Shown here: positions 13,934 through 63,070 of the stretch, in pieces
Numbering within the stretch: position 1 is the first letter of the stretch
How the letters are laid out: every line of letters starts with the position of its first letter
IMG/VR virus record: IMGVR_UViG_3300020685_000001
Source of the DNA: an uncultured virus (IMG/VR IMGVR_UViG_3300020685_000001)
Taxonomy: Duplodnaviria > Heunggongvirae > Uroviricota > Caudoviricetes
Length of the DNA stretch: 64,000 nt
Reading direction: 5' to 3' (one strand)
Position numbers and translations under genes: made by a program
Notes under the pieces: generated by a model
Told to the model about the DNA's origin: nothing
Database searches by the model: none
What the model saw: only the letters and a program-made list of their open reading frames with translations

Positions 13934-14530
13934 ATGGAGATTGTTGAGGAATATAGATTAAAAGTATCAGTCAGAAACAATTTAATATTAAAAGCTATTG
14001 AGGGGCATGGGTATACCAACATGGCTAAATTTGCCAAAGATGAAGGTATGTCTTTGACGGGGTTATATGAGTTAGTAAACCTAAAGACTGCCCCTATTGG
14101 TGTAGAAGGTGAATTTATAAAAGCCGCTAAAGAATTGATGGAAATACTTGGTGCTTGCCCAATTGACTTATGGACTACCGAACAATTAACTCTAGCGTTA
14201 AGAAAAAATTCGATAGAAAAAGAGCTTAGTAAAGAAGCTTTGCAAATAGCCTTGCAATCTGATGCTAGAAGTTTAATTGGTTTACCATACGAAGAAGTTT
14301 CTGAACAAGAGCAAACCGAGTTAGTAAAAGATGTTTTAGATTCACTAACACCTAGAGAAGCAAAAGTATTACGTATACGGTTTGGAATAGGTGATGAGGA
14401 AGAACATTCGCTTGAAGAAGCGGGTAAACGATTCAACGTATCTAAAGAGCGTATTCGCCAGATTGAGTCTAAAGCCCTCCGCCATATGCGCCATCCAAGT
14501 CGTAGCGACAAACTCAAAAAACTTTTGTAA
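13934..14530 (+). CDS. HTH + sigma70 region-4 protein
   Basis: [15 protein letters not shown]...[33 protein letters not shown] closely matches RpoD region 4; no region 2 seen. Confidence 0.88.
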
Positions 14531-23551: not shown

Positions 23552-23578
23552 TCCCCGGTTCCCTCCGGGGATTTTTTT
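23552..23578 (+). terminator. Rho-independent terminator at the convergence of the two arms
   Basis: TCCCCGG-TTCCCT-CCGGGGA followed by T7. Confidence 0.85.
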
Positions 23579-26500
23579 ATTTCTCGTTATAGAGCTTTTG
23601 CCTTATTTTATTTATAGGTGCAGCTAGAGATTCTCTCTTACGTTCAATCTCTTTAATCTTTGCAGCCTTTTCATCAGGACCCATTTGGGTATCAGGCATA
23701 TTACGGATGATATTTTCTGCTGTATTTAGATTGCCTAATGCACGTTCGATACCTTGGGTATTAACATTGATCTTATCTTTGTTCTTTTCTAAACGAGCTT
23801 TTGCACCTTCACGATCATACTTAGCCTGATTCTTAATGCTATTAACAATAGTATCTACCCCTTGTGCCGCTTCATAAAAATCAGATAGTGCACCATTAGC
23901 ATCTTCTTTAGTTACGAAGCTACCCACACCTGGAAGGTTCATTAGGAAGTCTTTTGTAGGGTGCTCAGAAGTTGGGCGAGATACCCCACGTTCTTTAGCA
24001 ATGCTGTCATTCGTAAGAGCGATTAGACTCGCATACTGGCCTAGATAGGATTTAAATAGGTAGTCTAGTTGCAATGGAGAAACACCTGATTGCGCCCCTA
24101 ATACTTTTGATAGCTCAGTTGTATTTTTAGTGAACTGTAGCTCAGGTGTTAGCTTACGTTGGGTAGCGTTGACAATTTCACGATTGTAGAAGAAGTCATG
24201 GTTAGTAGCTAAGCCGATAGCAGGTAGAATAGCGCCACCAATAGGGGGTTCAAATTGCTGTTTAACTGCACGAGCCATAGCACTCTTGAACATTTGTGGA
24301 TCTGTATATCCTTTATCTGCAATACTATGGTATAAGTATTCACCTATTAATTTAGGCATAGTAAGCAAGCCCATACGGATAGGAATACGAAGTCCACCTG
24401 TACCCGGAATAACAAAAGACGAATCCCGTTGTATACGGTTCATTTTCTTATAGTCATCATCGTCAGATACACTAGTGGCGTACATAAACGAAAGCATACC
24501 TAGAACTGCGGATGTAGTTGCTAATGTAGATAGCCCAGCCGCTCTTGTCTGTGGTGAAAGACCTGACCCTGAGAGCGTCTTAATAGTGATACGCTGCATC
24601 TGTCCAAAGGCGTTCATAAATGGGATAATCTGGCTAGCCATCTGCATACCAACGTTACCACTTTGACGGCGGAAGTTAAATATCTCAACTGCTTTTTCCA
24701 TTGCTTGGGCGTGCGTGCCACCCTCTGCTATAGTTTGTGCATAGACAGCTTGGCGTAACATATTATCATTAAGAGCTGCCCATTTATCTAAAGCACGCAT
24801 AGTCTTGCGGTAGACATTTGGGTCTTTTAAATTTAATTTAGTAGCTGTATCGTTTGCATCACCTAAAAATGGTGTGTCGTGGGTGGATAAAACACCCGCT
24901 TCTGACAAAGCTTTACGAGCTTCACTCGTACCCATTATAGTTTTTCCAATCTCAGCAGGGATTTGCTTTAGGAGCATCCAAGGGTGTTTTAACCCCGATG
25001 TAAGCATCGCTTCCCATGTATCTTTAAATACTAACTGAGCTGTAGGGAATAATGGCAAGCGAGTAAATGCGTGCGTAAATGCAGTTTTAAACCCACGAAA
25101 AGCCCCAATACCAGGGAACATAATTGTAGGAATACCCATAAAGGCTTGTGCAATAGCCGGATTAGCTACATGGTACTGGCGCCTTACCCCATCTTGATAC
25201 ACTGTAAATGTATTACCCCTGCTACCTTCACCTTCACGTACTTCTTCAGGGGCTACAGACTTATAAGAATCTAGCATTACGTTTAATTGCTGATTACTGA
25301 TAGCCCTAGAAATAGACCATTGCATCCATTGATACATATTACCAATAGTATTATCAACCTCAAGCATAGAACCTTTCATACGCTTGTCAGTCATATTTTC
25401 GTTAATACCTTTTCTAGATGTAACTAACCCTAAAGCTTCATCCTCATCCATAACACGTTGGAATGGTACATAGGCTATAGAGTCTAGCCAGTCTTGGGCT
25501 TGTTCTTCAGTCTTAACTCCAGTACGTACAAGCCAATCAATAGTACGCTTACGCATAGTATTCCAAACCTGAGTACCTTCACCAATTTCAGGATTAGCGT
25601 TATAAAGCTGCATACCGATAAGCGCTTGTTGGCGGGTCATGTGCATAGTCTTATGCTCTAAGTCTTCCGCTTTTTTCTTAAGCTCTTTTAGTAGTTCTCG
25701 TTTTTTATCTAAGTCTTTAGACTCAGCTTTAGTACGTTTTTTATTAGCAGATAGTTCTTTAATCTTTTTATCGGTACGAGTAATCTCTGCACGAGTATTA
25801 GCTAAGCTATTATAAAACTCCATAACCCTACTAGCTTCATATGCTTTAGACATTTGATCTAAGGCAGTATCCACATCAACACCTGTGCGGGTAGCAAAAG
25901 ATTTAATTAAGTCCTGAAACTTATTCATGTTTACTGCGTCATTAACTGCAGTCCAGCGGTTAGTCATAGCATCATAGGCTAAATTACCCATAGACATGAA
26001 CTTATGCGCTATCTCAGAACGATACAGAGCCTGTGTCATGGACGCCCGTAGCATCGCATTTTTAAATTGCTCTAGACTAATTTCGCCCTTATCAACTAGA
26101 TTCATAAACCCAGCACGTAGGCGGTTATTAAACCCGTCGTCAAAAGAAAATAAGTTTTGACCCCTGCCAAACATCTGGGTACTAATTAGTTGATTATTTT
26201 CATAAGCATCTGCCCATGACTTTAGTTTGCTTATAGTATTAGAAATAACTCTAGAGATAAATTTAGGTTTAGTTTTACCACCAGCAGCTTGAAAAAGAAC
26301 CGCATTATCTACTTCATTTATAGGTTGTGCAACGGGGGTTGCGGCAGGGGTTGCACCCGTAGTAGCTTGTATAGCCTGAGCTGGTGTAGCTTGTGCAACA
26401 GGGGTTGCGGTAGGGGTTGCGGCTAATGCAGGAGTCCCAGTTTCTCCACTAGGCGCCGCTCCTCCATCAAGTTGCTCAGTAGTTCCGACAGCGCTTCCCA

Positions 26501-28538
26501 CTCCTGTAGGTGCAGGTGTTGTAGTTCCTGGGGCGGTCTGTATCCCAGTGCTAGGCAGTTGAAGGCTTCGCTCAGTTGCTCCGTTGACATCTCCAGTATG
26601 TCCGTCATTTTGTATCTCCTGATTAGGGGAAAACCAACTAAAATAATTGCTTACTGCTTTATCGTTTATTTTAGCGCCTTTTATAGCATGTTTATTTATC
26701 TCATTGATAAATGTTTCTCTATCTTCAGGGCTATTCATATCTAACCCATTTAGCGCTTTACGGATAGGAGCTTTCTTAGTTAAACCAAAACCTTCCATTA
26801 TCTTGTTATCAATAATTGCAGCTGGTTTAGCTAATGCCCATAAATCCTCTGCCGCCATGGTTTGTTTAGCGGGTTCAGCAGTAGTAATTTTCTTTGCAAA
26901 TTCACCGCCTTGTTTTAAAAGCTCTTGTTGCCTATTAGCAATAGTTTCAATCTGGCTATCAATAGCTTTAATCTGCTCAGTAATAGGAGCTTTCTCCGCT
27001 AACTTAGGCGTATTATCCCGAAGGTCAATAAGCGTTTGCTTTTGTGCTTGTAATGCTTCACCTTTGTTACCAAGTGTAGTAAATTCCTGTTTTAGGATGT
27101 CGAGTGTTTCCCCCGGACCCTTAGGTAATTGCTCTTGCAATGCAGCGATTTGCTCTTTAACTTTAGGCGTTTGTTCTTGCTGTTGTAAGGCAAAAATACT
27201 ACGCTCAATCTCAGCTTGTGCACGCTCAGGTGCTTGGAGTGCTTCAATCTCTACAGGCTTACCAGCTTCAGTCTGCCCAGTTAAAGTATCAGGAGTTAGT
27301 GTTTTATTAGTTGCAGGCAGTTCTTCAGGTGTGAATAAGCTACTTTGTGCATTTGTGGGAATAGGAGTAACTGGCGTAGTCGCAGGCTGCTTAGTAGATG
27401 TATTTTGTAATGGGTTAGGAACTAAAGCACCTTGCGCATTTACTACCATAGATGGTTGAGTAGAGGCTTGTGTGGGGGTAGCAATAGGTTGCCCAGTATT
27501 GTCTAATCCTTGCTTTGCTAATTCACCCCTTGCAGCTCTAGTTTCAAGGGTACCAGTAACAGGACCCATTGCAAAACCGGCAAGAGCACCTTGATACATA
27601 GACTCGCCATAGCCTTTAAGGGCTTCTTTAGAGAATAAGTCTTCTCCTGCCTGTGCTCTAGAAAGTATGTCCTGTGCAGGGTTAACGAAAGCTTCTTCAG
27701 CAGAACCACGTACCATACCAGCACCTACATTTTTTAGCGTAGATTCTGCAGCTTTAACTAGCTCATCAGTAGCAAGGGCTTTTGCTGCTTTAGTAGTAGG
27801 TATCTTACCTAGCATTGATGTAAGTAAGTTCTTACCAATAGCATAGCCTTTACCCGCTTCTTCTAGGAGAGCCTGCCCTGTAGCTGCAGCTGCTGCTTTA
27901 CCTGCGCTAATATCTTTAGGAATACCTGATTCTTGCATTGCTTCTGATTGTTCAGCAATGTTTTGGCTAAAAAACTGTGGGTATAGGGCAGCAAATCCAC
28001 CCATAATCGCTCCAGCAGCCATACCACCAGGCACAGGAGTAGCAAGTCCTAATGCAGCACCAGTAGCAGCACCTGCGGCAACCTCACCCATTTGAGGTAA
28101 GCTACTAGCAATAAACCCTGGAGCTTGTGTAGCAACTTCTTTAGCTGCTCCTAAAATACCTGATTTATCATAGGCTTCGCCTACTTCTTTACTACCACGA
28201 GTTTGCCCTATTTCTTTACTAATCGCACGTTGTTTATCTAAAGATTCTGCTGCAAGGCGATTAAGCTCTTCTTGGGGGGCACCAATAGTTTGAAGATAAG
28301 TTTTATAGTCTTCATAAGACTGCTTTAACCCTCCAGCAATCCGGCTACCAATAGTAGCTTCTGGAACACCCTCAACAGATACATTACCTTTAGGCTCCTC
28401 AGATGCAAATCCGACTTTAGCATGAAACTCATCTAACGGTATATCGGAATAAAACTTTTTATGAAGCCCATCTACTAACTGTTGGTCAGATAGGTCCGAG
28501 TACTGGGGGTACTTTTCCCGTATAGTATTAATATCCAT
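23577..28538 (-). CDS. Large internal virion / DNA ejection protein (1653 aa), C-terminal LPD38-like region
   Basis: Size; last gene of the late arm; IREKYPQYSDLSD N-terminus; TM-like Ala/Gly stretches; NHDFFYNREIV, SPLQLDYLFKSYLG. Confidence 0.75.
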   Translation of the reverse strand: MDINTIREKYPQYSDLSDQQLVDGLHKKFYSDIPLDEFHAKVGFASEEPKGNVSVEGVPEATIGSRIAGGLKQSYEDYKTYLQTIGAPQEELNRLAAESLDKQRAISKEIGQTRGSKEVGEAYDKSGILGAAKEVATQAPGFIASSLPQMGEVAAGAATGAALGLATPVPGGMAAGAIMGGFAALYPQFFSQNIAEQSEAMQESGIPKDISAGKAAAAATGQALLEEAGKGYAIGKNLLTSMLGKIPTTKAAKALATDELVKAAESTLKNVGAGMVRGSAEEAFVNPAQDILSRAQAGEDLFSKEALKGYGESMYQGALAGFAMGPVTGTLETRAARGELAKQGLDNTGQPIATPTQASTQPSMVVNAQGALVPNPLQNTSTKQPATTPVTPIPTNAQSSLFTPEELPATNKTLTPDTLTGQTEAGKPVEIEALQAPERAQAEIERSIFALQQQEQTPKVKEQIAALQEQLPKGPGETLDILKQEFTTLGNKGEALQAQKQTLIDLRDNTPKLAEKAPITEQIKAIDSQIETIANRQQELLKQGGEFAKKITTAEPAKQTMAAEDLWALAKPAAIIDNKIMEGFGLTKKAPIRKALNGLDMNSPEDRETFINEINKHAIKGAKINDKAVSNYFSWFSPNQEIQNDGHTGDVNGATERSLQLPSTGIQTAPGTTTPAPTGVGSAVGTTEQLDGGAAPSGETGTPALAATPTATPVAQATPAQAIQATTGATPAATPVAQPINEVDNAVLFQAAGGKTKPKFISRVISNTISKLKSWADAYENNQLISTQMFGRGQNLFSFDDGFNNRLRAGFMNLVDKGEISLEQFKNAMLRASMTQALYRSEIAHKFMSMGNLAYDAMTNRWTAVNDAVNMNKFQDLIKSFATRTGVDVDTALDQMSKAYEASRVMEFYNSLANTRAEITRTDKKIKELSANKKRTKAESKDLDKKRELLKELKKKAEDLEHKTMHMTRQQALIGMQLYNANPEIGEGTQVWNTMRKRTIDWLVRTGVKTEEQAQDWLDSIAYVPFQRVMDEDEALGLVTSRKGINENMTDKRMKGSMLEVDNTIGNMYQWMQWSISRAISNQQLNVMLDSYKSVAPEEVREGEGSRGNTFTVYQDGVRRQYHVANPAIAQAFMGIPTIMFPGIGAFRGFKTAFTHAFTRLPLFPTAQLVFKDTWEAMLTSGLKHPWMLLKQIPAEIGKTIMGTSEARKALSEAGVLSTHDTPFLGDANDTATKLNLKDPNVYRKTMRALDKWAALNDNMLRQAVYAQTIAEGGTHAQAMEKAVEIFNFRRQSGNVGMQMASQIIPFMNAFGQMQRITIKTLSGSGLSPQTRAAGLSTLATTSAVLGMLSFMYATSVSDDDDYKKMNRIQRDSSFVIPGTGGLRIPIRMGLLTMPKLIGEYLYHSIADKGYTDPQMFKSAMARAVKQQFEPPIGGAILPAIGLATNHDFFYNREIVNATQRKLTPELQFTKNTTELSKVLGAQSGVSPLQLDYLFKSYLGQYASLIALTNDSIAKERGVSRPTSEHPTKDFLMNLPGVGSFVTKEDANGALSDFYEAAQGVDTIVNSIKNQAKYDREGAKARLEKNKDKINVNTQGIERALGNLNTAENIIRNMPDTQMGPDEKAAKIKEIERKRESLAAPINKIRQKLYNEK

Positions 28539-37454: not shown

Positions 37455-37699
37455 TTCTTTTTAATGCGGGCAGTTTTAGCTACTACAGATTTTTTAGCTG
37501 CTGGTTTTTTAGTTTTTGTGGTAGCTTTCGGAACTATCACTTTTTTCTTAGGTTTTTCAGATAAAGATGTAACTTCAACTACAGGAAAAGGCCACATTTT
37601 AAAATCAGGGGTTTGCGCATCAATCTTAGCCTTACCAACTTCCATATCAATTTTTGGCATATAGCCAAGCTTGTCGAATAACCAATTAATAATAAACAT
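37451..37699 (-). CDS. Small protein with Lys-rich tail
   Basis: WPFP motif; histone H1-like K/A/P tail. Confidence 0.6.
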   Translation of the reverse strand: MFIINWLFDKLGYMPKIDMEVGKAKIDAQTPDFKMWPFPVVEVTSLSEKPKKKVIVPKATTKTKKPAAKKSVVAKTARIKKK

Positions 37700-39864
37700 T
37701 ATTTAACTCCTAGGTTGAGAATCTGTTCTTCTAGTGCCGTTACTTTTGCACTAAGTTCTTTAACTGCGTTAACTAATAGCCAAGTAATTTCTGTAGTATC
37801 AACGTGCTTAATGTCAGTTGTCTCTGTATCTTCAGGGTTTAACTTTCCTGGAATAGTTCTAATAACACTTGGCAAAACTTGTTCAATTTCATCAGCAACT
37901 ACACCAAGACCTTCTGCACCTTGCGTAGACCCGCCTTTACCGTTGTATACCCATGTTCTAGGTTTAATTTGATTTAATAAATCAAGACCTTTTGTATAGT
38001 CTTGGATATTATTTTTAAGGCGAATGTCTGACGTAGCAATCCACGCAGTAGAACTACCACCTTTAATAGCATCAACAGCGGTTGTATATAGAGTATTATT
38101 AGCTAAACCTACAGTGCCGCTTGTAGGAGTTATTGATAAATATGTACCACTACCACCTCCAAAACCATTTAGAAAACCCACGGTATTAGTAGTTGGGTCA
38201 AATAAAACCCCAACACCATTACCAGCAAGTTGCAATGATGTAGCTGAAAGTCCAGAACTATAAGTGCTGTAAGTTACACCAATACGCAGGTTACCTGCGC
38301 TGGTTCCTGTTGCGGTTATGCTAGCTGTAGAACTATAGGTATTTGCTCCAGTAAAGTTATTTGTGCCACTTAATTGAGCATACCCAGAAAGCGCAGATGA
38401 AGTTACATAGTTTGACGGGTTTGAGCTAAGCGGATAGTAGTAAGAACTATAGTCTGTTGAAGAAGGAGTTACTGGTCCAGTACGACCATTAAAAGAAGTT
38501 ACTGCGCTTGTACCTAGTAGTGTACTAAACGGGGTTGAAGACCATACAGAACCATTAGAAGCTAGTACGTTATTTGCAAAGCTTGGAGAAATAGCTGTTG
38601 GTACACTTGTACCATTACCAACTAATACAGCTCCCGAAGTTAAAGTCGCTAAGCCTGTACCCCCAAAACTTACTGGAATTGGATTTGAAGAATTATAAGA
38701 TGTACCCCATGCAGCACCTGTTGAATTAGGAATACCAACGTTAGGGTATACAAAGCTACCGCTTGCAGATAATGCGTTCTTAACAAATGCTGTTGTAGCT
38801 ACGTTATTTGAGTTATCAGTAGTAGCAGGGGTTGTAGCAATAGCCGCAGGAGAACCAGTAATAGTTGTAGAACCTACAGTCTGTGAAATATTAACAAGGT
38901 ATGTACCTGCGCCACCTGTGCCAGAACCTAATGCTGTAATTTGGGTAGAAGGAGTAGTAACTGTAACAGCACCGCCATCGCCGGATACTGTCGAAGAAGC
39001 TGCTGCACCAGCAGTAAATGAATAACTATTAGCATTAATATAGGTAATTGAATATGTACCGTTTAAGCTTGTACTTGGAATGCCACCCGTTGCAGAAGCT
39101 CCAGCAATAGTTACAGGAGTACCATTTGAAAACCCATGACCCGCCTGGGTTACTGTTACAGTAGCGCTGCCGTTTGTAGTAGATAGGGGATTAGTTAAGT
39201 TAGTGGATGTGGCAGCGGCAATACCTGTACCGGAAATAATTTGACCAACAAAAACAGATCCTACAGAAACCCCGCCTGTTGGTACGGTTAAAGTATTACC
39301 AGAAATACTACCTGTAAACGTAGCCTGTTCAAAGGCAGCAAAAACGTTAGCAGCTGAAAAATTACCAATTTCTGTGTCGTTACCAAGTACAGTTAAATTA
39401 CCCTCTACAAGGAAGTTACCAGCCGCAGTATTAGCCGCACGGAAATTTTGACCATCAGACCAAACAGTAATTGTCGCACCAGCAGCAATAACTACACCCG
39501 CACCTGCAGGGATGGTATTACCGATAGCTGTACTATTATAGATAGTCGCAGTATATGTGGTATTGTTATAGACAACATAGGATTTTGGTGTAGGCGGTGC
39601 ATATAGGTTAAACGCCGTAGTTACCGTACCAGTAGTTAATTGTAAAAATGCAAAGACTGACTGATTAGACGCTGCTGAGGTTGTAGAACCATAAACATAG
39701 GTTAGCGCTTGATTTGATGAATTAATAGGGATAGCTTGGTACCCACTGACGGCATTCTCAAGTACGTACTGGTCAGTACCGTTGGTTGTATTTCCCCAAG
39801 TACCAGCTTGGTCGCCTGTACCGATTAGTTCGATACGTAAATTCGGTGAGTATGTTGAGGCCAT
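37699..39864 (-). CDS. Tail fibre with C-terminal intramolecular chaperone (peptidase S74-like)
   Basis: GDQAGTWGNTTN N-terminus; VATTAFV; VTSFNGRTG; SDIRLKNNI...GVVADEIEQVLP...LVNAVKELS. Confidence 0.9.
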   Translation of the reverse strand: MASTYSPNLRIELIGTGDQAGTWGNTTNGTDQYVLENAVSGYQAIPINSSNQALTYVYGSTTSAASNQSVFAFLQLTTGTVTTAFNLYAPPTPKSYVVYNNTTYTATIYNSTAIGNTIPAGAGVVIAAGATITVWSDGQNFRAANTAAGNFLVEGNLTVLGNDTEIGNFSAANVFAAFEQATFTGSISGNTLTVPTGGVSVGSVFVGQIISGTGIAAATSTNLTNPLSTTNGSATVTVTQAGHGFSNGTPVTIAGASATGGIPSTSLNGTYSITYINANSYSFTAGAAASSTVSGDGGAVTVTTPSTQITALGSGTGGAGTYLVNISQTVGSTTITGSPAAIATTPATTDNSNNVATTAFVKNALSASGSFVYPNVGIPNSTGAAWGTSYNSSNPIPVSFGGTGLATLTSGAVLVGNGTSVPTAISPSFANNVLASNGSVWSSTPFSTLLGTSAVTSFNGRTGPVTPSSTDYSSYYYPLSSNPSNYVTSSALSGYAQLSGTNNFTGANTYSSTASITATGTSAGNLRIGVTYSTYSSGLSATSLQLAGNGVGVLFDPTTNTVGFLNGFGGGSGTYLSITPTSGTVGLANNTLYTTAVDAIKGGSSTAWIATSDIRLKNNIQDYTKGLDLLNQIKPRTWVYNGKGGSTQGAEGLGVVADEIEQVLPSVIRTIPGKLNPEDTETTDIKHVDTTEITWLLVNAVKELSAKVTALEEQILNLGVK

Positions 39865-39873
39865 TTATATTCC

Positions 39874-40905
39874 TTACTGATTATCGTCTATGTCTATCCA
39901 GCCCGGATTTTGGTTATCGCCTACGCTATCCCATCCAGGGTTTTGTGCATCATTTATTCCTGTCCAGTTAGATGTCTGGTTATTACCTACTGCCTGCCAC
40001 ATTTGGACCTGGTTATTATTGACACCGTTCCAAGTTGTATCCTGATTATCGTTTATTTTAACCCATCCACGAGCAAAAGGGGAGTCTATAGCCGATACTA
40101 TTTCTTGGGTTAAACCTACAAAATTGGCTTTTGCGGTATCGGTATCGACTAAGTTAAAGTTTTCAGCAGCTGTTACAAATGCAAATCTACGACCATTTAC
40201 GGCATCTGTAAAGGTAGCTAATTCTTGGACTCGTACTGGAAAGCTTTGGAATACGTTTTCTACATCAGTAAACCTAGCTGTTTCTGGTACGGAAACCACA
40301 AATTTAGCTCGGGCAATAAGGGCTTCAACTAAAATTACTGACTCTGGTACAGTTACCCGGGCGTTTAATTTACCGGCTTCGACATCGGAAAAAGAGCTAT
40401 TTTCAGCTACGGTTTCACGGAAATTAAATTGGGATTGTTCTCTATCACTTAAAGAAAGAGTATTAGCAGATAATCCAGCAAAGGCAGCTTTTGCTGAAAC
40501 TAGGGTATTAATTGTGGCTGCTTCACTTGTAAATACGTAATAAGTATTATTACTTCGTTCTGTATCTGTTAGGGTTACGTTTTCTGCTGCCAATACAATA
40601 TAAGCAAAAGAAGACGCTAACCTATCACTAATAGTGAACATTTCATATACTGCACCACTTGCACCAAATTTAACAGCGTAGGCGTCAGCAAGGGAACTGC
40701 TTTCTGCTACAGTTTCACGGAAGTTAAATTGGGATACATCTCTATCAGATAATGCAAAAGACTCAGCATTTAATACGTTAAATTTAGCTAAACTAGAAAA
40801 AGAATCGGTTGTTGTAAAGCTTTCAGATACAGAAATCGAATAGATACTACCCCCCGGAATAGTACACCAGGGAGCCTGTGCAAATGGTGAAAACCCAAAG
40901 GTCAT
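39874..40905 (-). CDS. Repeat-containing tail-associated protein
   Basis: FGFSPFAQAP start; ~20-aa repeats; C-terminal 11-aa W..(V/I)..NQ repeats. Confidence 0.7.
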   Translation of the reverse strand: MTFGFSPFAQAPWCTIPGGSIYSISVSESFTTTDSFSSLAKFNVLNAESFALSDRDVSQFNFRETVAESSSLADAYAVKFGASGAVYEMFTISDRLASSFAYIVLAAENVTLTDTERSNNTYYVFTSEAATINTLVSAKAAFAGLSANTLSLSDREQSQFNFRETVAENSSFSDVEAGKLNARVTVPESVILVEALIARAKFVVSVPETARFTDVENVFQSFPVRVQELATFTDAVNGRRFAFVTAAENFNLVDTDTAKANFVGLTQEIVSAIDSPFARGWVKINDNQDTTWNGVNNNQVQMWQAVGNNQTSNWTGINDAQNPGWDSVGDNQNPGWIDIDDNQ

Positions 40906-40950: not shown

Positions 40951-41598
40951 TTACACCTCAGGGAATAAGCATTTGTTAATAAACAATGAAACTTCATCTG
41001 GGTCTAACCCTAAAGACGCCATTACTCTAGGGGTATGTGGGTTTTTCTTTTGGTTCTGGCAGTAATAATTTTGCTTGTCCTTATAGTCGCCTTTCTCACC
41101 CATACCCATATAGTCAAGATACTGGTTAAGATTTGCTGTGGCTAGGCTAAGTACTTTAGCTAACTCTTCTTCTGTGTTGATGTTTCCGGCAGCTACCATA
41201 CTAGGGCTAAATATATTACGTGCCCATTCTGGAAGTTCTCGCTCTCTACTCCACTGGTAGCCAGCTACTTTATCTTTAAACCAGTCGTTTAATGGGTGTT
41301 CACCTATTGGGCTAAAGTCATGGAAAGCACCAGTAACCTTATTAGCTCCAGCAATAATATCAAAGCCGTATATGGGGGCAGGGCAGTCTAAATGTGGGAA
41401 TACGCACAAATGGAGCATATAGAGCTTTTTGGTTTCCCTAGCGTCTACTATGTCCAAATGCGCCCTACGAAAATTATGACCTTTATAGACATAATTAGGC
41501 CAAGTAAATTTATGTCCTTCGTCTACTTCCTCATAGTACTTAAACCGCTTTTGGAGGTAGTCAGCGAAGTTTTCAAGCTGCTGGAATATCGTGGGCAT
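40951..41598 (-). CDS. pcyX: Ferredoxin-dependent bilin reductase, PcyX-like
   Basis: FRRAHLD...YMLHLCVFP...PIYGFDIIAG..AFHDFSP, RELPEWARNIFS, YCQNQKKNPHTPRVM; Asp where PcyA has the HLE Glu. Confidence 0.88.
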   Translation of the reverse strand: MPTIFQQLENFADYLQKRFKYYEEVDEGHKFTWPNYVYKGHNFRRAHLDIVDARETKKLYMLHLCVFPHLDCPAPIYGFDIIAGANKVTGAFHDFSPIGEHPLNDWFKDKVAGYQWSRERELPEWARNIFSPSMVAAGNINTEEELAKVLSLATANLNQYLDYMGMGEKGDYKDKQNYYCQNQKKNPHTPRVMASLGLDPDEVSLFINKCLFPEV

Positions 41599-42106
41599 CG
41601 GCAATCTCATCAAATAGTCTTAGATTGAATTCTATAGCTATATTAGCCTCATCACCTAGATCATCAGATAGACGCTCACGAACTTTGTCGATTAACTCTT
41701 TGCGGTTTTCAAATTGGTACATTAATCCAGAGCCAGGTACAACCTTTTTAATCATCTGGCCACCGTATAAATCGCCAAAATGCTTAGCGTATATATGCCC
41801 CATAATCTTATCTGCAGGTATGTCTTCTATGTACTTTGCGTAGTCTGCAGTAGATTGGTATACCTTAGCCGGAGTTACTAACTCAATATAGTCCATCTCA
41901 ATCTTAGGGCCACGGCAAATACTTTCAATACCTTCTAATAAACCTTCTTTCCAAGCACGCTCTTCTAATTTTGTATAACAGAACAACTGGTTATATAAAA
42001 GGTCTGCATAGACCGGTACTGGAATTTCACCTGATAAAAGAACCTTAACAAAACGGTGGTTTTCCGCCTTATCGTGGTTATCTTTAATCAGGTCTTTAAG
42101 GCTCAT
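41573..42106 (-). CDS. hemO: Heme oxygenase
   Basis: Proximal His in HDKAE; distal helix HIYAKHFGDLYGGQMIKK; DEANIAIEFN. Confidence 0.93.
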   Translation of the reverse strand: MSLKDLIKDNHDKAENHRFVKVLLSGEIPVPVYADLLYNQLFCYTKLEERAWKEGLLEGIESICRGPKIEMDYIELVTPAKVYQSTADYAKYIEDIPADKIMGHIYAKHFGDLYGGQMIKKVVPGSGLMYQFENRKELIDKVRERLSDDLGDEANIAIEFNLRLFDEIADAHDIPAA

Positions 42107-42363
42107 TTTTTATCGGCAGCGGCAGCGGCAGCGACCAAAGCAGCAGCAGCATCGTTTTCTGCTTTTAAAATAGCAGCAGCAACTTCTTCATCTTTTTTTC
42201 CTACATAGTTATCAACTAATTCATCGTTAACTAGTGAATATCTAGGAGCAAAAGTAGATTGACCTTCTTTCAAATCAAAAGAAGCAAGATGCTCTGGTTC
42301 GTCAGATTGGTTCGTAAAATCCGCAATAAAACAATCCGTTGGAGTAGTAAAATAAATTTTCAT
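42103..42363 (-). CDS. Small hypothetical protein (possible fibre assembly factor)
   Basis: 86 aa with Ala-rich tail; stop overlaps the hemO start (ATGA). Confidence 0.6.
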   Translation of the reverse strand: MKIYFTTPTDCFIADFTNQSDEPEHLASFDLKEGQSTFAPRYSLVNDELVDNYVGKKDEEVAAAILKAENDAAAALVAAAAAADKK

Positions 42364-42374
42364 TTTTAATCCTT

Positions 42375-43739
42375 TTAAGCAGCTAATTTAGGTCCAGAAG
42401 TTCCACCTGTTAATAACATATAATCTGTTGTCATAGCAAGACCTGGATAGTTTGTTGTATTTGGGGCCGGGAATGATGGGTAATACAGGGTTGTACCTGT
42501 TTGTGTAAATCCACCAGCAGAGTTTTTAGTATATACAGCAGAAACATAATCTCCTGGATAGTTACCTGCATAACCATTACCATTAAAACCAAATGCCCAA
42601 CCATTGTTGCCATAAGGAACAACGCCATAACCAGCACTACTATCTGTATTTGAATAAGTAGAGTATGTATTATTATTTTTATCAATCATGAAAGCCTCCA
42701 CACCAGAACCATAATAGTAGTATGGGCAAAATGTGCAGACAGTTGATCCGTCACGAGATGTTATTTGACGTTGGCCATAATAAAAACCTTGGTCAAAACC
42801 ATAAGAAGTTGTAATTGACAAAGCAGTTACATAAGTACCTGTAATTGCACTTGTTCCACTTCTAGTAAATGAGTACAAAGCAAAGCTAGAACTAGTAAAC
42901 ATTACGGTAACATATACAGTTCCGTTAGCAGTTACAATTGGTTTTAAGTTGTAATATGACTCGTTATTATTAACACCCCAACTGCTAGTCAATGCAACGG
43001 TTGAGTTAACTCTAACTACGCCAGACTGTGTTAATGCAACTGATGGGTCAGGGTACAAGTTAAAATCTACGTTTTGGAATGTAATTACGTTAAAGTTACC
43101 ACCTGTACTAGCATAACTTAGAATAGTTAACTCTTTACGAGCGTAGTTATATGACGCACTACCCTGCATTGTTGTATTTAAACTTGAAACGGTATATGCA
43201 GAAGTACCATCTAATGGAGCAGTATAATTTCCGAATAAACGATCTACAGCAGTAATTTTACCGCCGTTTAAAAGGTATACAATTCTTTTGTTTGAGTGGT
43301 CACTATTAATTGCATAAGCATTTAAATAGTATTTATTGTAGTTAGAACTAGTAGCCCTTCTAGCACTACCAAAAGTACCATCACTATAAATATCAATACA
43401 AGAATTTCCAAATTCGCCTTGTGAATTAGTTGCATTCATATAGTTAGACGTACTGGTTGAAGACGCTTGGTTACTAGTATCTGATACCCAGCTAAACTGA
43501 GAAGAATAGTTTTGGTATGTTCCGCTAGTTAAATAAACTATGTTAGAGGGGCCATAGCTATTATAGTTACTTGGGTAACTCAAGTTTATTGGCTGCGCAA
43601 AGTTTTGATCGTAAAAAGCAAAGCCACCGTTTCCGTTAGATGGGTTATAGCTACATAGTGCATAGCTAAATCTGGCTCCAGTACCCGAAACACCTGGGTT
43701 GACACCACCGTTAAGAACTGTTGTAAGAAGTTGTGGCAT
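42375..43739 (-). CDS. Putative receptor-binding / fibre-tip protein
   Basis: S/T/N/Y/G-rich beta protein directly downstream of the long fibre; likely start MPQLL. Confidence 0.6.
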   Translation of the reverse strand: MPQLLTTVLNGGVNPGVSGTGARFSYALCSYNPSNGNGGFAFYDQNFAQPINLSYPSNYNSYGPSNIVYLTSGTYQNYSSQFSWVSDTSNQASSTSTSNYMNATNSQGEFGNSCIDIYSDGTFGSARRATSSNYNKYYLNAYAINSDHSNKRIVYLLNGGKITAVDRLFGNYTAPLDGTSAYTVSSLNTTMQGSASYNYARKELTILSYASTGGNFNVITFQNVDFNLYPDPSVALTQSGVVRVNSTVALTSSWGVNNNESYYNLKPIVTANGTVYVTVMFTSSSFALYSFTRSGTSAITGTYVTALSITTSYGFDQGFYYGQRQITSRDGSTVCTFCPYYYYGSGVEAFMIDKNNNTYSTYSNTDSSAGYGVVPYGNNGWAFGFNGNGYAGNYPGDYVSAVYTKNSAGGFTQTGTTLYYPSFPAPNTTNYPGLAMTTDYMLLTGGTSGPKLAA

Positions 43740-43740
43740 A

Positions 43741-46700
43741 TTAAACGAGCCTCCATCCAAAAGAAGAATTATAAGTTAAATTGACTGATGCGCCTGAAAC
43801 GTTCAGGATTAAGTTTTGACCAGAACCTTGAATACTTGCGCCATTATATCCTACAGTTACAGGATTTACCCCAAAAGTGCTATTTGCATCTGCAATCTTT
43901 ACCGAGTCATTGTTATTAGGCGATGCTGGTAAAGTAATTGTAAATGGGCTAGAAGCAGTATTGCATAGGTAATTGGTTCCTGCTACTGCAGTAGTTGCCG
44001 CTGTTGTAACTGTCCATTGTGGTGTAACAGATACAGTACCCCAAGAAGTAACTGTGCCGTTTGTAGTTAAATACTTACCACTATTTCCAGTTTGGCTTGG
44101 AACAGCCGCACTAACTTGAGTACCAACATAAGTAACAACCGCAGATTGGGTAGGAACCTTGACTGGAGAGTTCTGAGCCATTGTACCGTCAGTACTAAAC
44201 TCATTAATCTGAGCGCCTAACTGAGCGCCAATCGAACCCAAACGTAAAGATGTCAAACCAGACAGGTTAAACGAGTTAGCATTCAGTGTTGCGGCACCAG
44301 TTGCTTGGTTAACCGCAAAGTATGAACCAACTTGGAAGTTACCTGCTTGGTCAGCAGAAATATAGTAAACACGACCAGGCAATGTTTGAAGAACTTGGTT
44401 AGCCGGATTAGGTGCTTGTGTTGGGGTATTAGGGTAGTTTGTAGTTGTAATACCACCAGTACCAATATTTAAAAAGTCATGGGCAGTAATACGGCATAGA
44501 CTAAAGTTAGAACGAATCGTAACTGTAGAACCCGATGCTGAAGCCGTAGCTTTTTGTTGCGCTAATACAACAGAAATAACACTAGAGCTATTAACCCAAG
44601 AGCCAGAGGTTGCGTTAATAATATATGCAGAAGAATCTCCAGCGACTTGAACTGACTGACCGACTTGAGGTGCTGCTATCAAATTGTTCAATACAAGTAC
44701 ATAACCTTGTTGCCCACCATATGTAGATACTATACCAACACCACCGCTTGTAGCAGTAATAGTTTGGCCAGCAGTAAATGTACCACCAGTAACGTTAGTT
44801 ACATAGACAGAAGAAATCTGTACGTTAGTTACAGTTGCAGTTACACCAGCACCGTTAGATACCGTATCTCCTGGATTAATAGTACCTGTGTAATTACCGG
44901 TAAAAGTAATTAAAGTACCATATAAAGAACCAGTAATTGCGGTCTCAGCAGCGCTATATCCAGATGATACTGATCCGTATGTACCATATGAGTTATTTCC
45001 GCTAATAGAACGTAACTGACCACCATTAGTAGTTGCATATCCAAAATAAGCGTAGTAAGTAAATACGCCGACGCACTCAGATTTACCATTGTTATCAACC
45101 CAAATACCTACACCATTATCGTGAATACCTGTGAACTCATGGAAAAGAATTGAGCGATTACCAGATGAGTGTACGCTACCATTAACGTATGCGCCAATAC
45201 CACCAGAAGAGAAGCAAGCACACTCAATAACATAAGGTGATTTAACAATAATTGGGGACGCTGGGTTTAATGCGCAGTAGATACCTTTTGGCGTAGATGT
45301 AGTAATATCTGAAGGTGTTGCTCCAGGAACCCAGCCAGTCATGCCTTGGAACGATAACTTATTTAGCAAAGAACCATCCGATAACGCCCACATAGTTGCT
45401 TGGTTGTTTGGTGTTACACCATCTGCAGCAAGGCCAGAGCCAGGTTGAACAATTGTAGTACGAGTTGCATCACCTACGATAGCGCAGTTAGGAGGAACAA
45501 CCATTGGCAATAATGCTTCTTGGTAAGTACCAGATTTAACAAAAATTGCAGTCTTTTGACCAGATGGAACAGCCGCAATTGCGCCTTGAATAGTTAGCTT
45601 TGGAAGGGCTAAGCTATTTCCTGGATTTGAATCGCTACCATTTTTAGCAACATAAAGAATATTTACACCACTAGTAGCATTAAGCCAAGCTAAGTTAATG
45701 CCATCATTAGCGATTGATAATGAGTATCCATTTTGGCCAGAAGTAATTGCGGGGAATACATTATTACCAGCAGCAAAAATCTGCCACTCACCGGCAGTCA
45801 AGTCGGTATTAAAGTTTGAGCTAGATGTATTATCCTGTAAGCAAATATAAGAAGATGTTAAGTTATAAACTACATCATTAACTAAATATTGTGTAGCTGC
45901 AGCCCAAGTACCTCTCCAACGAATACCACCGTTAAAGATCTGCCACTTACCAGCAGCTAAGTCAGTAGCAAATACACCAGATGTATTTAGTGTTACGCAA
46001 GAATAAGTATTACCGCCATAAACAACAATATCGTATGGTAGATACTGAGTAGCAGTTGTCCAAGCACCACGTTGACGTAATCCTGATACAAAGATAGACC
46101 ATTTACCAGCGGCTAAGTCAGTAGCAAATACACCTGAAACGTTTTGTACTTGGCAAGCGTAAGTATTAGCGCCATACTGAACAAGGTCGTTTACGTAATA
46201 TGTAGTTGATGTAACCCATGCACCACGGTTTTGAAAGGCGGAGATAAACGGCTGCCAGTAAGCAGTATTAGTAGGTAAATTACCTGTAGTATTAGCAGTT
46301 GCAATATATAGGTTTGCGCCATAGGCTACGATATTATTAGGTACATATGCAGTAGCGGAGTTATATACACCACTAGCAGCAATACCAGAAACAAATGGGG
46401 ACCAATAAGTAGCATTTGTTGGATCATGGCCGGTTGTTGTTTGGATTGCAATATAGGCAGATGGGCCATACGTTACAACGTCATCCGGTTGATAGGCCGT
46501 AGTATTGCTATAAACCCCATTATATTGAATACCAGTTACAAACGTAGACCAAATAGCAGGGTATAAGTCAGGTTCTTTATTAATATTATCCGATAAAGAA
46601 ACGTAAACTACAGCGCCATAAGCAACAGCATCGCCAATGTGGTATTGAACAGCAGGATCCCATACACCAACGAAGTTAACGCCCTTTACCATTAATGCCC

Positions 46701-46866
46701 AGTAGGCAGTGTCTGTAGGTAGGTTACCAATAGTTTTTACAACATTAGTGTATACGTATACGTTACCACCATATTTAACAACGTCATTAAGTTCATATTG
46801 AGTTGTAATTACATAGTCGCCGGCCCAATAGAACCGTAGTTTGCCTAAGTCAAGAATTGTTGTCAT
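43741..46866 (-). CDS. Tail fibre/spike with carbohydrate-binding-like repeats and beta-helix region (1041 aa)
   Basis: ~8 W/Y...Y..(N/D)D.V.YG repeats; LYVAKNGSDSNPG, IFVKSGTYQE; INEFSTD, VPTQSAV, QTGNSGKYLTTNG. Confidence 0.85.
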   Translation of the reverse strand: MTTILDLGKLRFYWAGDYVITTQYELNDVVKYGGNVYVYTNVVKTIGNLPTDTAYWALMVKGVNFVGVWDPAVQYHIGDAVAYGAVVYVSLSDNINKEPDLYPAIWSTFVTGIQYNGVYSNTTAYQPDDVVTYGPSAYIAIQTTTGHDPTNATYWSPFVSGIAASGVYNSATAYVPNNIVAYGANLYIATANTTGNLPTNTAYWQPFISAFQNRGAWVTSTTYYVNDLVQYGANTYACQVQNVSGVFATDLAAGKWSIFVSGLRQRGAWTTATQYLPYDIVVYGGNTYSCVTLNTSGVFATDLAAGKWQIFNGGIRWRGTWAAATQYLVNDVVYNLTSSYICLQDNTSSSNFNTDLTAGEWQIFAAGNNVFPAITSGQNGYSLSIANDGINLAWLNATSGVNILYVAKNGSDSNPGNSLALPKLTIQGAIAAVPSGQKTAIFVKSGTYQEALLPMVVPPNCAIVGDATRTTIVQPGSGLAADGVTPNNQATMWALSDGSLLNKLSFQGMTGWVPGATPSDITTSTPKGIYCALNPASPIIVKSPYVIECACFSSGGIGAYVNGSVHSSGNRSILFHEFTGIHDNGVGIWVDNNGKSECVGVFTYYAYFGYATTNGGQLRSISGNNSYGTYGSVSSGYSAAETAITGSLYGTLITFTGNYTGTINPGDTVSNGAGVTATVTNVQISSVYVTNVTGGTFTAGQTITATSGGVGIVSTYGGQQGYVLVLNNLIAAPQVGQSVQVAGDSSAYIINATSGSWVNSSSVISVVLAQQKATASASGSTVTIRSNFSLCRITAHDFLNIGTGGITTTNYPNTPTQAPNPANQVLQTLPGRVYYISADQAGNFQVGSYFAVNQATGAATLNANSFNLSGLTSLRLGSIGAQLGAQINEFSTDGTMAQNSPVKVPTQSAVVTYVGTQVSAAVPSQTGNSGKYLTTNGTVTSWGTVSVTPQWTVTTAATTAVAGTNYLCNTASSPFTITLPASPNNNDSVKIADANSTFGVNPVTVGYNGASIQGSGQNLILNVSGASVNLTYNSSFGWRLV

Positions 46867-47108
46867 ACCATCACCATTAGTAAATGTCCATCATCACCCC
46901 ACTGGAACTGATATGTATCAGTTGACCAGATCCAAGCTTGATACTCGTTTGGGCCTGTAATATAAGTCGGATCAGGTATAGATACTACACCATCTCCATT
47001 TTTTATGGTATCAATATCTAATTGACCCGTTGCATTAATTAGCCTAAAACCGTAAAAAGTTTTATTTTTTAAATCCGTACCTAAATAGAACCCGCCATCT
47101 GCTGACAT
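46863..47108 (-). CDS. Small tail protein
   Basis: ORF coupled to the fibre gene. Confidence 0.6.
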   Translation of the reverse strand: MSADGGFYLGTDLKNKTFYGFRLINATGQLDIDTIKNGDGVVSIPDPTYITGPNEYQAWIWSTDTYQFQWGDDGHLLMVMV

Positions 47109-47109
47109 T

Positions 47110-47439
47110 TTATAGTCCTTCCAGAGCTGAAACGATTATATCAAAACCGTTAGTAATTCCACTAGTATACGTGGATGCAGTTAATGTGTCACCACCTAAA
47201 AGTACTAATTTATTGCCTGGAAGCAGTGCTTCTGCGGCCCCACCAGCAACATAATAATTAGATACCACAGCCGTTGTTGTTCCGCCTCGAACTAAATTAA
47301 TAGTTATAGGTAAATTTGTATAGTAAGTATTGGCTGCATTTAAACCAATAATAACGCAATTACTACCTCCAGGGGCGGTAAAAATAGTCTGGGGTGTCGT
47401 GCCTAGACCTTGAGTTTGTATGCTGGTAAATGTTGCCAT
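47110..47439 (-). CDS. Small tail protein
   Basis: Start MATFTS; GNKLVLLGGDTL motif. Confidence 0.65.
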   Translation of the reverse strand: MATFTSIQTQGLGTTPQTIFTAPGGSNCVIIGLNAANTYYTNLPITINLVRGGTTTAVVSNYYVAGGAAEALLPGNKLVLLGGDTLTASTYTSGITNGFDIIVSALEGL

Positions 47440-47440
47440 A

Positions 47441-47827
47441 TTAGCCGCCCAATGCAATTGCGTAAATTAAAGCTGACCCTGCTGGGTCGTACACCAAAGA
47501 CCCATCTACATTATTATATACTGCTCTTTCAGCGGGTAAGTCACAAAATATATCTTTTGGTCCAGTAGCAAAGTTAACTAATGCATTACTGTTTGAACTT
47601 TTAAATACTGTATCTCTGTTCAACACTAAACCAGTACTATCTAATGTACCAGCACCTGTTTCCCAAGTATTATTAGTAGAATCAGAAATTGTATAGAAAG
47701 TAGTATTGCCACCGCCGATAGCGGCGGTAAAAGTGGTAAACCCGGGGAATGCCCCCCCCAAAGTCATAGCACCTGTACCGCCTGTGCTAGTGGTTTCTCG
47801 GACTCTATCTGAGACTACAAAGGTCAT
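47441..47827 (-). CDS. Tail protein
   Basis: DRVRETTST.GTG, WETGAG, KDIFCDLPA; ends IALGG. Confidence 0.7.
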   Translation of the reverse strand: MTFVVSDRVRETTSTGGTGAMTLGGAFPGFTTFTAAIGGGNTTFYTISDSTNNTWETGAGTLDSTGLVLNRDTVFKSSNSNALVNFATGPKDIFCDLPAERAVYNNVDGSLVYDPAGSALIYAIALGG

Positions 47828-61507: not shown

Positions 61508-63070
61508 TTAAACGTTATAATACCCAGCGCCTCTTTTAGATTTGAACCATTTAATCTCTTCTGGTTCGTCGGTAGGTAAGCGCAAAAAGCCCCCCTGCCT
61601 AAATCTCATTAGCGCTAATGTCATTGAGTCCACTAAGTCGTCGTGTTCGCCCGAAGGGAATGCCGCAACCTCGTCTATCAGCTCTTCTGCCCAGCGTGTA
61701 GCTGGAGCCCATACTTTACCAGATGCAAAGAAATCTGCAACTGAATTTAACCTCGAAATCTTGTCCTGACCTTTCCCCGGACTAAATTCCCCGACAGGGA
61801 TTCCCATCCTTCTAAGTTCTTGAATGAGAGGCGCACCAGCCGCCTTTTTCTCAACAATAAGAGAGTCCGGCTCATACGCTTCGTATAGTTCATACGCTTT
61901 CGCCTTGAGGTCCGGAAATTCCAAGCGCTCCTTATAGGAGTCCAAAAGGATAATGTTTGGTAGGTTGTGGTCTTCCTCATTGTAGAAAACACCCCAGGTT
62001 GTGCAAGTTGAGAAGTCATTTACGGTTTTCTTTTCGTGGGCCGTATCCCAAGACTGAATAATATATTCACAAGCGGGAGGTCTTTCGGCTTCCCAAATTT
62101 TCCACCACTCTCTCTTCACAATCGCCGAGCTATCGCTCGTCGGCTGTTGCATATATTGTGCCATCCATTTGGCGTTAGGTAATTCAGTATGTAGGGCTTC
62201 AAGTTCTTTAAGGGACCAAAACTCTGGCCAAAGCGGTTTGCCGCTATCCAAAATGGCTGGCAACTCAATCACACGCCATTCATCCCCACCACGCTGGGCT
62301 GCACTTTTTACTACCTGAGCAGTCAAGTCCCGCATCGACCAGCGGGTCATCACGATTACAATAGAGCCTCCAGGTTGTAAACGCTGACGAGGACCAGAGG
62401 TAAACCACTCATAAACTTTATCGTAGACTTCTGGATTGAATGCAGCTATGGCAGCCTCTTGCTCAGAATGTGGATCGTCAATGATGAGAAGATCAGCTCC
62501 CTTACCAGTAACAGCACCGCCCACACCGATAGCGAAATAATCACCGCCAAAATTAGTATTCCAACGGCCTGCCGCCTTTGAGTCTGACTGGAGTTCAATA
62601 GCAGGGAAAAGGCGTCTATACAGAGGGTTGTCCACCAGGTTCCTAACTTTACGGCCAAAGCCCACAGCCAGCTCAGCGGTGTGCGAAGTTTGGATAACTT
62701 TCTTCTGAGGAAACTTCCCGAGGAACCAAGCTGGTAGCAAATAAGAAGCAAACTCAGACTTAGTGTGACGGGGAGGCATATTAATGATGAGACGTTTACA
62801 TGTACCATTGGCTACATCCTCAAAAGCCTTTGCCATTTTCTCATGGTGCCTTCCATGAATAAACTCAGGCCAGACGCTGTTAACAAATTTCATGAAGTCT
62901 TGCTGGACTTCTTCCCTTGCATCCCGAGTATCTAGTTCTTCTAGTATTTCTAACGTAGATGCAGCTTCTTCAGCCGGCATGTCCTTTAAAAAACGGGCAC
63001 GTTCTTCCGGAGATAGACTTTTTAGAATCTCAATCGGGTCTAATTCAGCTTGGATAACGGTATCAGTCAT
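61508..63070 (-). CDS. terL: Terminase large subunit
   Basis: NMPPRHTKS, LLIIDDP, VMTRW, QSWDTA, HDDLVDS. Confidence 0.95.
   Translation of the reverse strand: MTDTVIQAELDPIEILKSLSPEERARFLKDMPAEEAASTLEILEELDTRDAREEVQQDFMKFVNSVWPEFIHGRHHEKMAKAFEDVANGTCKRLIINMPPRHTKSEFASYLLPAWFLGKFPQKKVIQTSHTAELAVGFGRKVRNLVDNPLYRRLFPAIELQSDSKAAGRWNTNFGGDYFAIGVGGAVTGKGADLLIIDDPHSEQEAAIAAFNPEVYDKVYEWFTSGPRQRLQPGGSIVIVMTRWSMRDLTAQVVKSAAQRGGDEWRVIELPAILDSGKPLWPEFWSLKELEALHTELPNAKWMAQYMQQPTSDSSAIVKREWWKIWEAERPPACEYIIQSWDTAHEKKTVNDFSTCTTWGVFYNEEDHNLPNIILLDSYKERLEFPDLKAKAYELYEAYEPDSLIVEKKAAGAPLIQELRRMGIPVGEFSPGKGQDKISRLNSVADFFASGKVWAPATRWAEELIDEVAAFPSGEHDDLVDSMTLALMRFRQGGFLRLPTDEPEEIKWFKSKRGAGYYNV

Follow-up and report, generated by a model that had tools for sequence, protein, structure and literature searches.

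Heme oxygenase and PcyX-type bilin reductase genes adjoin an exchangeable fibre-tip module in a phage with HTVC023P/SU10-like genes

The minus strand of the 64,000-nucleotide stretch of uncultured-virus DNA analysed here (IMG/VR record IMGVR_UViG_3300020685_000001; hereafter the window, in whose coordinates all positions are given) encodes a heme oxygenase, HemO, and a PcyX-type bilin reductase among its tail-fibre genes. Probably, hemO and pcyX form a host-directed metabolic pair that is genetically linked to a mobile host-range module, and their products act in the infected cell, not in the particle. By homology, HemO would open host heme to biliverdin IX-alpha with release of iron and CO, and the reductase, working with host ferredoxin, would carry out a four-electron reduction of biliverdin to the pink bilin phycoerythrobilin. 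Transcription of the cassette most likely occurs by read-through from the fibre genes, with coupled translation. Its place after the fibre-tip module would reflect genetic linkage, in a slot that appears to be a variable island holding 2-oxoglutarate (2OG)-Fe(II) oxygenases and ferrochelatase in relatives, and fibre-tip exchange by recombination ending in or beside the cassette would let it travel with host-range modules between phage lineages. The hemO-pcyX pair is already known as an auxiliary metabolic cassette; what we take to be new, within the limits of our literature library, is its HTVC023P/SU10-like carrier, as opposed to the myophages already described.

The cassette lies in a single, densely packed string of structural genes that runs along the minus strand from the terminase gene (61508-63070) to the gene for a 1653-residue protein (23577-28538). 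Gene order, coordinates and overlaps read from the sequence agree with those in a preliminary description of this DNA, and the gene layout also bears out the position claimed there, among fibre genes in the structural arm. In the order of the minus strand, the features are:

47110..47457, minus strand: 115-residue gene, first of two small genes heading the fibre module (homologues at 28-49%)
46863..47108, minus strand: 81-residue gene, directly upstream of the fibre gene (homologues at 38-68%)
43741..46866, minus strand: 1041-residue tail fibre (PHROG 9851, 2e-201; CBM_5_12, 6e-10)
42375..43739, minus strand: 454-residue protein with a predicted beta-propeller fold, probable fibre-tip or receptor-binding component
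42103..42363, minus strand: 86-residue accessory protein of the 454-residue module (homologues beside 454-residue relatives)
41573..42106, minus strand: hemO, heme oxygenase of 177 residues (PF01126, 5.5e-13)
41570..41600, no strand: approximate right-hand recombination breakpoint (shift in nucleotide identity at the hemO/pcyX junction)
40951..41598, minus strand: pcyX-type reductase of 215 residues (PF05996, 3.1e-19), or 220 residues from a TTG at 41613
39874..40905, minus strand: 343-residue repeat protein, conserved together with the 721-residue fibre
37699..39864, minus strand: 721-residue second fibre with an intramolecular chaperone domain (Peptidase_S74 C-terminus, 5.7e-11; fibre PHROGs)

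On the 3′ side of the second fibre gene are two small genes, a 139-residue gene and a GH19 endolysin gene. From the first fibre gene to the second, neighbours overlap or are separated by at most 45 nucleotides. A single nucleotide separates the stop codon of the 1041-residue fibre from the ATG of the 454-residue gene, which has GGAGG upstream of it; 11 nucleotides separate the 454- and 86-residue genes; the TGA of the 86-residue gene overlaps the ATG of hemO (ATGA); hemO and pcyX overlap by 26 nucleotides, counted from the ATG at 41598, a start shared with relatives; and pcyX is 45 nucleotides from the 343-residue gene. We propose read-through because no intergenic stretch upstream of the cassette is large enough for a promoter. 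Between 36 and 48 kb there were 20 sigma-70-like sites (34.1 expected) and 12 terminator-like sites (9.0 expected). A sigma-like protein of the phage itself has a Sigma70_r4 domain (13934-14530, plus strand; 2.4e-18), and thus late promoters may differ from host sigma-70 sites.

Several lines of evidence place the reductase with PcyX rather than PcyA, as the preliminary description had proposed. First, the protein matched Pfam Fe_bilin_red (PF05996) with 70 bits against a cut-off of 31, over residues 20-218 and profile positions 19-228 of 228. Second, its best PDB match was PcyX (5owg_A; E = 1e-62, 215 bits, residues 32-219), compared to 5.8e-16 and 62 bits for the best PcyA match (2d1e_A). 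Third, HLD, MLHLC, and GFD motifs are present, with Asp, His, and Asp at residues 54, 68, and 85 of the 220-residue form and thus a spacing of 14/17; the residues of HLD, H(LC), and GFD line up with those of PcyX in the 5owg_A alignment, whereas the first site of PcyA is Glu. The corresponding residues are Asp72/His86/Asp103 in PcyX and Glu76/His88/Asp105 in PcyA according to the available part of PMC13446030, which gives PcyX members Asp at the first site and phycoerythrobilin as product. Fourth, in an alignment of 66 distinct sequences Asp/His/Asp occurred in 62 of 62 PcyX-like rows and Glu/His/Asp in 4 of 4 cyanophage PcyA rows. Finally, a quick maximum-likelihood tree split the same 62 rows, including that of the Pelagibacter phage Mosig, from the 4 cyanophage PcyA sequences with a Shimodaira-Hasegawa-like approximate likelihood-ratio (SH-aLRT) support of 100; the window reductase fell in the clade of Mosig, with a long branch to cyanophage PcyA. 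The phylogeny of ferredoxin-dependent bilin reductases called for earlier is thereby supplied in part: it separates PcyX-like from cyanophage PcyA sequences, and the reference EBK42635, bacterial PcyA, and PebS lie outside it.

HemO matched Pfam Heme_oxygenase (PF01126) with 49.6 bits (cut-off 23) and, in the PDB, HO-1 and HO-2, down to 3e-10. His11 and the sequence GDLYGGQ, which we take to be the proximal histidine and the glycine motif of the distal helix, align to the corresponding His and GDLSGGQ of HO-2. The protein is short at 177 residues; its relatives have 168-212. Both genes have intact frames and are under purifying selection, with ratios of nonsynonymous to synonymous substitution (dN/dS) against close relatives of 0.09-0.10 for hemO and 0.05-0.09 for pcyX. 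From these homologies we infer that the reductase makes phycoerythrobilin and draws on host ferredoxin. In agreement with the earlier account, the 67 window proteins scanned (at least 75 residues) gave no match at E ≤ 1e-3 to a ferredoxin, a bilin lyase, or a family of photosynthesis proteins.

Two relatives, L006 and L007 in our numbering of loci, suggest how the cassette became tied to the fibre tip. DNA homology to both breaks off within the fibre gene, at 44126, and resumes where hemO begins, and the C-terminal ~128 residues of the 1041-residue fibre belong to the swappable tip block. Nucleotide identity is 66-83% in hemO and 86-99% in pcyX, except for 77% identity to L007 in the last 90-nucleotide bin of pcyX, and synonymous divergence (dS) is 1.88 for hemO versus 0.41-0.47 for pcyX. 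Because of the homology break at 44126 and these contrasts in identity and dS, the exchanged block most likely comprised the fibre tip, the 454- and 86-residue genes, and hemO, with its right crossover near the hemO/reductase junction. Exchange of the tip block with hemO links the cassette genetically to the tip module.

The same arrangement recurs at L174, a region of 59% GC on a 631-kb record that was found by a metagenome scan with the 454-residue protein. L174 keeps the window order, with 115- and 81-residue homologues first and again a 4-nucleotide overlap between the 86-residue gene and hemO, at identities of 51% (fibre), 55% (454-residue protein), 52% (86-residue protein), 49% (hemO), and 65% (reductase); endolysin and virion genes follow the reductase. 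The 115-residue protein has no Pfam or PHROG match, and its homologues precede the 81-residue gene and fibre in other lineages; in phages with and without the cassette, 81-residue homologues immediately precede those of the fibre. This 115/81/fibre leader also precedes the cassette in the T4-like contig L041 and in a contig class of ~105 kb by CheckV estimate, in 5 partial records of which there was neither a match to the window TerL nor a sheath match.

A wider account can be built on these recurrences, although we regard it as doubtful: the cassette and the fibre-tip genes would be one mobile "host-adaptation block", in which a host-range determinant (fibre tip and accessory genes) stays next to a host-specific metabolic pair, exchanged by recombination among unrelated lineages that share hosts, and, more boldly, a protein of the particle would bind the bilin. 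The lineages involved might, with similar doubt, be the 66-kb podophage type, the ~105-kb class (again a CheckV estimate), T4-like myophages, and the 59% GC lineage, and it is no better than conceivable that the cassette serves as a conserved right-hand anchor for tip swaps.

The setting of the cassette in other phages bears on how general the linkage is. A scan of viral contigs gave 285 loci with a reductase relative, and the best 80 of the 285 were kept for survey. hemO was matched at 69 of these 80 loci; among the other 11, 2 start at a contig end and 9 have an AlaS-like gene (PF00155) upstream instead. Collapsing identical reductases left 62 distinct contexts, with the window and Mosig counted. 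The immediate upstream neighbour was a 2OG-oxygenase-type gene in 17, a member of other enzyme or chaperone families grouped as auxiliary metabolic gene (AMG)-type in 18, a fibre-family gene in 6, the contig end in 5, and something else in 16. Downstream, the neighbour was a neck gene in 17 of the 62, a member of the same AMG-type group in 15, and a fibre or the 343-residue protein in 7. A fibre-family gene lay on the same strand within 5 kb upstream in 18 of the 40 contexts with enough sequence and within 9 kb in 19 of 30, and half of the contexts with both flanks (16/32) had a structural gene close on either side. In 7 distinct contexts, genes for an exonuclease, Hsp70, Hsp20, and ClpS come before the cassette, with no recognisable structural gene; the DnaK-Hsp20-ClpS context is a proteostasis-type island. 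Placement is clearly non-random, as had been anticipated and as both the 18 of 40 contexts and the full order in L174 attest, yet the tie to fibres does not hold in all lineages, because fibre, neck, and DnaK-Hsp20-ClpS contexts all occur.

Some details of individual loci belong here. The order exonuclease-Hsp70 (DnaK-like, 5e-261)-Hsp20-ClpS-hemO-reductase was seen in L017-L023, L040, L043, L048, L076, L178, and L182. At L008 (8890-10648), a 2OG-Fe(II) oxygenase gene stands between hemO and the reductase gene, and the pair is therefore not always contiguous. PcyX-like genes were also present on short contigs in genome bins (8 loci, L175-L182) assigned to Verrucomicrobiales, Polynucleobacter, Anaerolineales, Coraliomargarita, an archaeon, Rhodobacteraceae, and Rickettsiales. 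We rejected these bins as evidence of hosts; since 6 of the 8 loci show neck, sheath, or TerL genes or other phage-context neighbours, they are probably phage contigs caught in bins.

Judged by its genes, the carrier is of the HTVC023P/SU10-like podophage type. Its TerL is 58.5% identical to that of the lake phage DSL-LC04, 54-55% to those of 023Pt_psg01 and the Pelagibacter phage HTVC027P, and 49% to that of HTVC023P, and the window encodes two SU10_adaptor proteins and a family-A DNA polymerase (PolA) besides the sigma-70 region-4 protein. The 33 structural-arm proteins scanned gave no sheath or tube PHROG and no neck match (gp13-15 type). On a 201,057-bp metagenome contig (L170-L172), which looks like a concatemer of one phage genome, the locus is present three times at an exact spacing of 66,090 bp; this repeat length puts the genome unit at ~66.1 kb, almost all of which the window spans. 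In the accessible text of PMC11480375, a gp13 phylogeny places the published cassette contigs with myophage-type pelagiphages. Within our limited library, searches returned no literature pairing HTVC023P with heme oxygenase and, for heme oxygenase, bilin reductase, and podoviruses together, a single review; on this basis we take the carrier type as unreported.

The carrier also bears on whether the host might be a cyanobacterium in which phycoerythrobilin feeds the phycobiliproteins, as proposed for cyanophage PebS and PcyA. Matches of 34-43% between the fibre and those of the cyanomyophages S-CAM1, P-SSM2, and S-CAM3, and a TerL 46% identical to those of the Synechococcus phage MinM2 and Planktothrix phages, would be in keeping with such a host, but the nearest TerL proteins are those of the lake phage, recorded with Gammaproteobacteria as host, and of SAR11 phages; the reductase belongs with its counterpart in Mosig, a SAR11 phage, and is distant from cyanophage PcyA; and psbA, hli, cpeT, and other photosynthesis families are absent from the scanned window proteins. 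We therefore consider a cyanobacterial host improbable.

In cassette-free isolates of this group, enzyme genes occupy similar positions. Among its fibre genes, 023Pt_psg01 has an endonuclease-V-like gene, a 2OG oxygenase, and a ferrochelatase/oxygenase, and HTVC027P and DSL-LC04 have one 2OG oxygenase each. In the Prochlorococcus phage P-SSM7 (L166), cpeT and pcyA lie directly upstream of gp5, the baseplate hub gene. These isolates, Mosig, and P-SSM7 show that enzyme genes inside structural regions are ordinary in such phages. A 2022 survey of 80 HTVC023P-type genomes (PMC9599517, available in part) described 2OG-Fe(II) oxygenases accompanied by ferrochelatase, as well as exchange of several genes at a time between podophages and myophages; neither "bilin" nor "ferredoxin" occurs in its main text.

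The recurrence of these enzymes raises the idea that neighbouring Fe(II)/2OG oxygenases draw their Fe(II) from HemO and modify components of the fibre or host surface, so that the heme genes would serve fibre maturation. The 17 of 62 contexts with a 2OG oxygenase immediately upstream, the presence of both ferrochelatase and 2OG oxygenases in the fibre region of relatives, and the pairing of the two noted in the seen portion of PMC9599517 fit this idea, but there is no 2OG oxygenase among the scanned window proteins, where the cassette is nonetheless under purifying selection, and we think the idea unlikely to be right.

The two genes between the fibre and hemO bear on whether the bilin might belong to the particle. 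The 454-residue protein has 125 homologues of uniform length (~450-475 residues), and its AlphaFold2 model (predicted local distance difference test score, pLDDT, 88.7; predicted template-modelling score, pTM, 0.90) matched beta-propellers only, including lectins, with NirN and NirF among many ties. These matches are generic (Foldseek template-modelling scores 0.2-0.4; best VIA Z 8.8, a middling value), and the model shows a generic beta-propeller, that is, a predicted fold without a specific function. In other phages, 1-3 tandem copies of homologues follow PHROG 9851 fibres, and the protein is probably a fibre-tip or receptor-binding component. In L174 and in 7 of the 13 best viral loci, the last 454-residue paralogue is succeeded by a homologue of the 86-residue protein. 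The 86-residue model has a small beta part and a long helix (pLDDT 72), with no PDB match at E ≤ 0.001; membership of a tail-assembly chaperone family was considered for this protein and rejected (hhalign probability 0.5%). The structure prediction proposed earlier thus gave a propeller fold compatible with tetrapyrroles, but only generic propeller matches, and nothing in the PDB for the 86-residue protein. At L094, neck, sheath-stabiliser, TerL, and sheath genes come immediately after the 454-residue module. L091 (7001-11428) and L093 (7001-11465) have three tandem 454-residue paralogues, 52-57% identical to that of the window, and one 86-residue homologue; these propeller triplets follow a short fibre end related to PHROG 9851.

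Late co-location with fibre genes had been taken to suggest that the bilin is made for the particle, where the 454-residue propeller, the 86-residue protein, or a fibre would bind it as ligand or chromophore, or for photoprotection or light-dependent adsorption. Dense packing with the fibre genes and the overlap with the 86-residue gene, the order kept in L174 at 49-65% identity, the recombination history that hemO has in common with the tip block, and a fold compatible with tetrapyrrole binding would all suit such a role, but the candidate partners and the cassette each occur without the other. In L006 and L007, where the reductase is 93-95% identical to that of the window, a tail-assembly chaperone gene (PF16778) and a 2OG-Fe(II) oxygenase gene replace the 454- and 86-residue genes, and at 75 of 75 non-window viral loci with 454-residue relatives neither hemO nor the reductase had a match; together these results speak against either protein being an obligate partner of the bilin. 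Moreover, some copies of the cassette lie in non-structural surroundings, next to DnaK-Hsp20-ClpS or an AlaS-like gene; its slot holds soluble oxygenases and ferrochelatase in relatives; neither a bilin lyase nor a Pfam family of known bilin-binding domains (GAF, phycobiliprotein, lipocalin-like) was found in the 67 scanned window proteins; and the cpeT-pcyA pair abutting gp5 in P-SSM7 illustrates that such genes commonly adjoin structural genes. A role for the bilin in the virion was not supported by these comparisons and is, in our view, very improbable.

We thus return to a metabolic pair that acts in the infected cell and is linked to a host-range module. Its purpose may be heme turnover and iron release, a suggestion we make tentatively and with more doubt than conviction; iron release from heme is discussed in the portion of PMC11480375 that we could consult. 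Several points weigh against this overall account. The conserved 454-86-hemO-pcyX order and the 4-nucleotide overlap in L174 could reflect a functional tie; iron release as the purpose is a guess; late co-transcription is inferred from gene packing only; propellers can bind tetrapyrroles (NirN and NirF were tied matches), and the modelled 454-residue protein may hold a ligand in the virion; and one intermediate PcyA/X enzyme makes phycocyanobilin, although that enzyme does not have the Asp (PMC11480375, part of the text).

Behind the locus lies the question of why phages of non-cyanobacterial hosts make phycoerythrobilin, which the locus does not answer. It does extend hemO-pcyX to a second, abundant phage architecture, indicates that the candidate virion partners (the 454- and 86-residue proteins) are dispensable for keeping the cassette, and documents a recurring linkage of the cassette with exchangeable fibre-tip modules. 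This linkage offers a testable evolutionary idea, namely that metabolic genes spread with host-range genes.

Other parts of the window can be described briefly. The 343-residue protein, with internal repeats and a Trp-rich Asn/Gln C-terminus, had no Pfam match and no match in a word-indexed search. Homologues are present in L006-L009, and a full scan gave 366 distant matches, largely to the C-terminal ends of proteins of 1.2-2.8 thousand residues; the 8 of these 366 relatives that were scanned had no PHROG match. At the end of the structural string, the 1653-residue protein (23577-28538, minus strand) has an LPD38 domain (4e-21) and adjoins an 829-residue protein with a weak match to DNA-ejection proteins. 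No tRNA genes were found in the window.

Four known systems bear comparison. PcyA of cyanobacteria and cyanophages, whose product is phycocyanobilin, has its Pfam family, fold lineage, His, and second Asp in common with the window reductase, but has Glu at the first catalytic site and a spacing of 12/17, in contrast to Asp and 14/17 in the window. The marine viral HemO-PcyX cassette, with PcyX_EBK42635 (PDB 5OWG) as reference (Ledermann et al., 2016, 2018, as cited in the available parts of PMC11480375 and PMC13446030), consists, like that of the window, of two adjacent genes, hemO and then the reductase, and 5OWG shares the Asp/His/Asp residues and the 14/17 spacing; the published contigs are of myophage type in what is available of PMC11480375, whereas TerL, adaptor, and PolA of the window are of HTVC023P/SU10 type. 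Among isolates, the best match is Mosig EXVC030M (MT647606), with 51.6% identity over 85% of the window reductase. As in the window, its hemO is directly upstream of pcyX, with a homologue of the fibre gene farther upstream and in the same orientation, but Mosig is a 141-kb T4-like myophage, unlike the ~66-kb podophage type, and genes annotated as four 2OG oxygenases, a ferrochelatase, and endonuclease V part its fibres from hemO-pcyX, with neck genes following. Finally, the islands of HTVC023P-type pelagiphages, which belong to the same TerL group, are reported to hold 2OG oxygenases, ferrochelatase, and type VIII secretion system (T8SS) genes (PMC9599517, in the part available), and their enzyme genes are embedded among fibre genes, just as hemO and pcyX are in the window.

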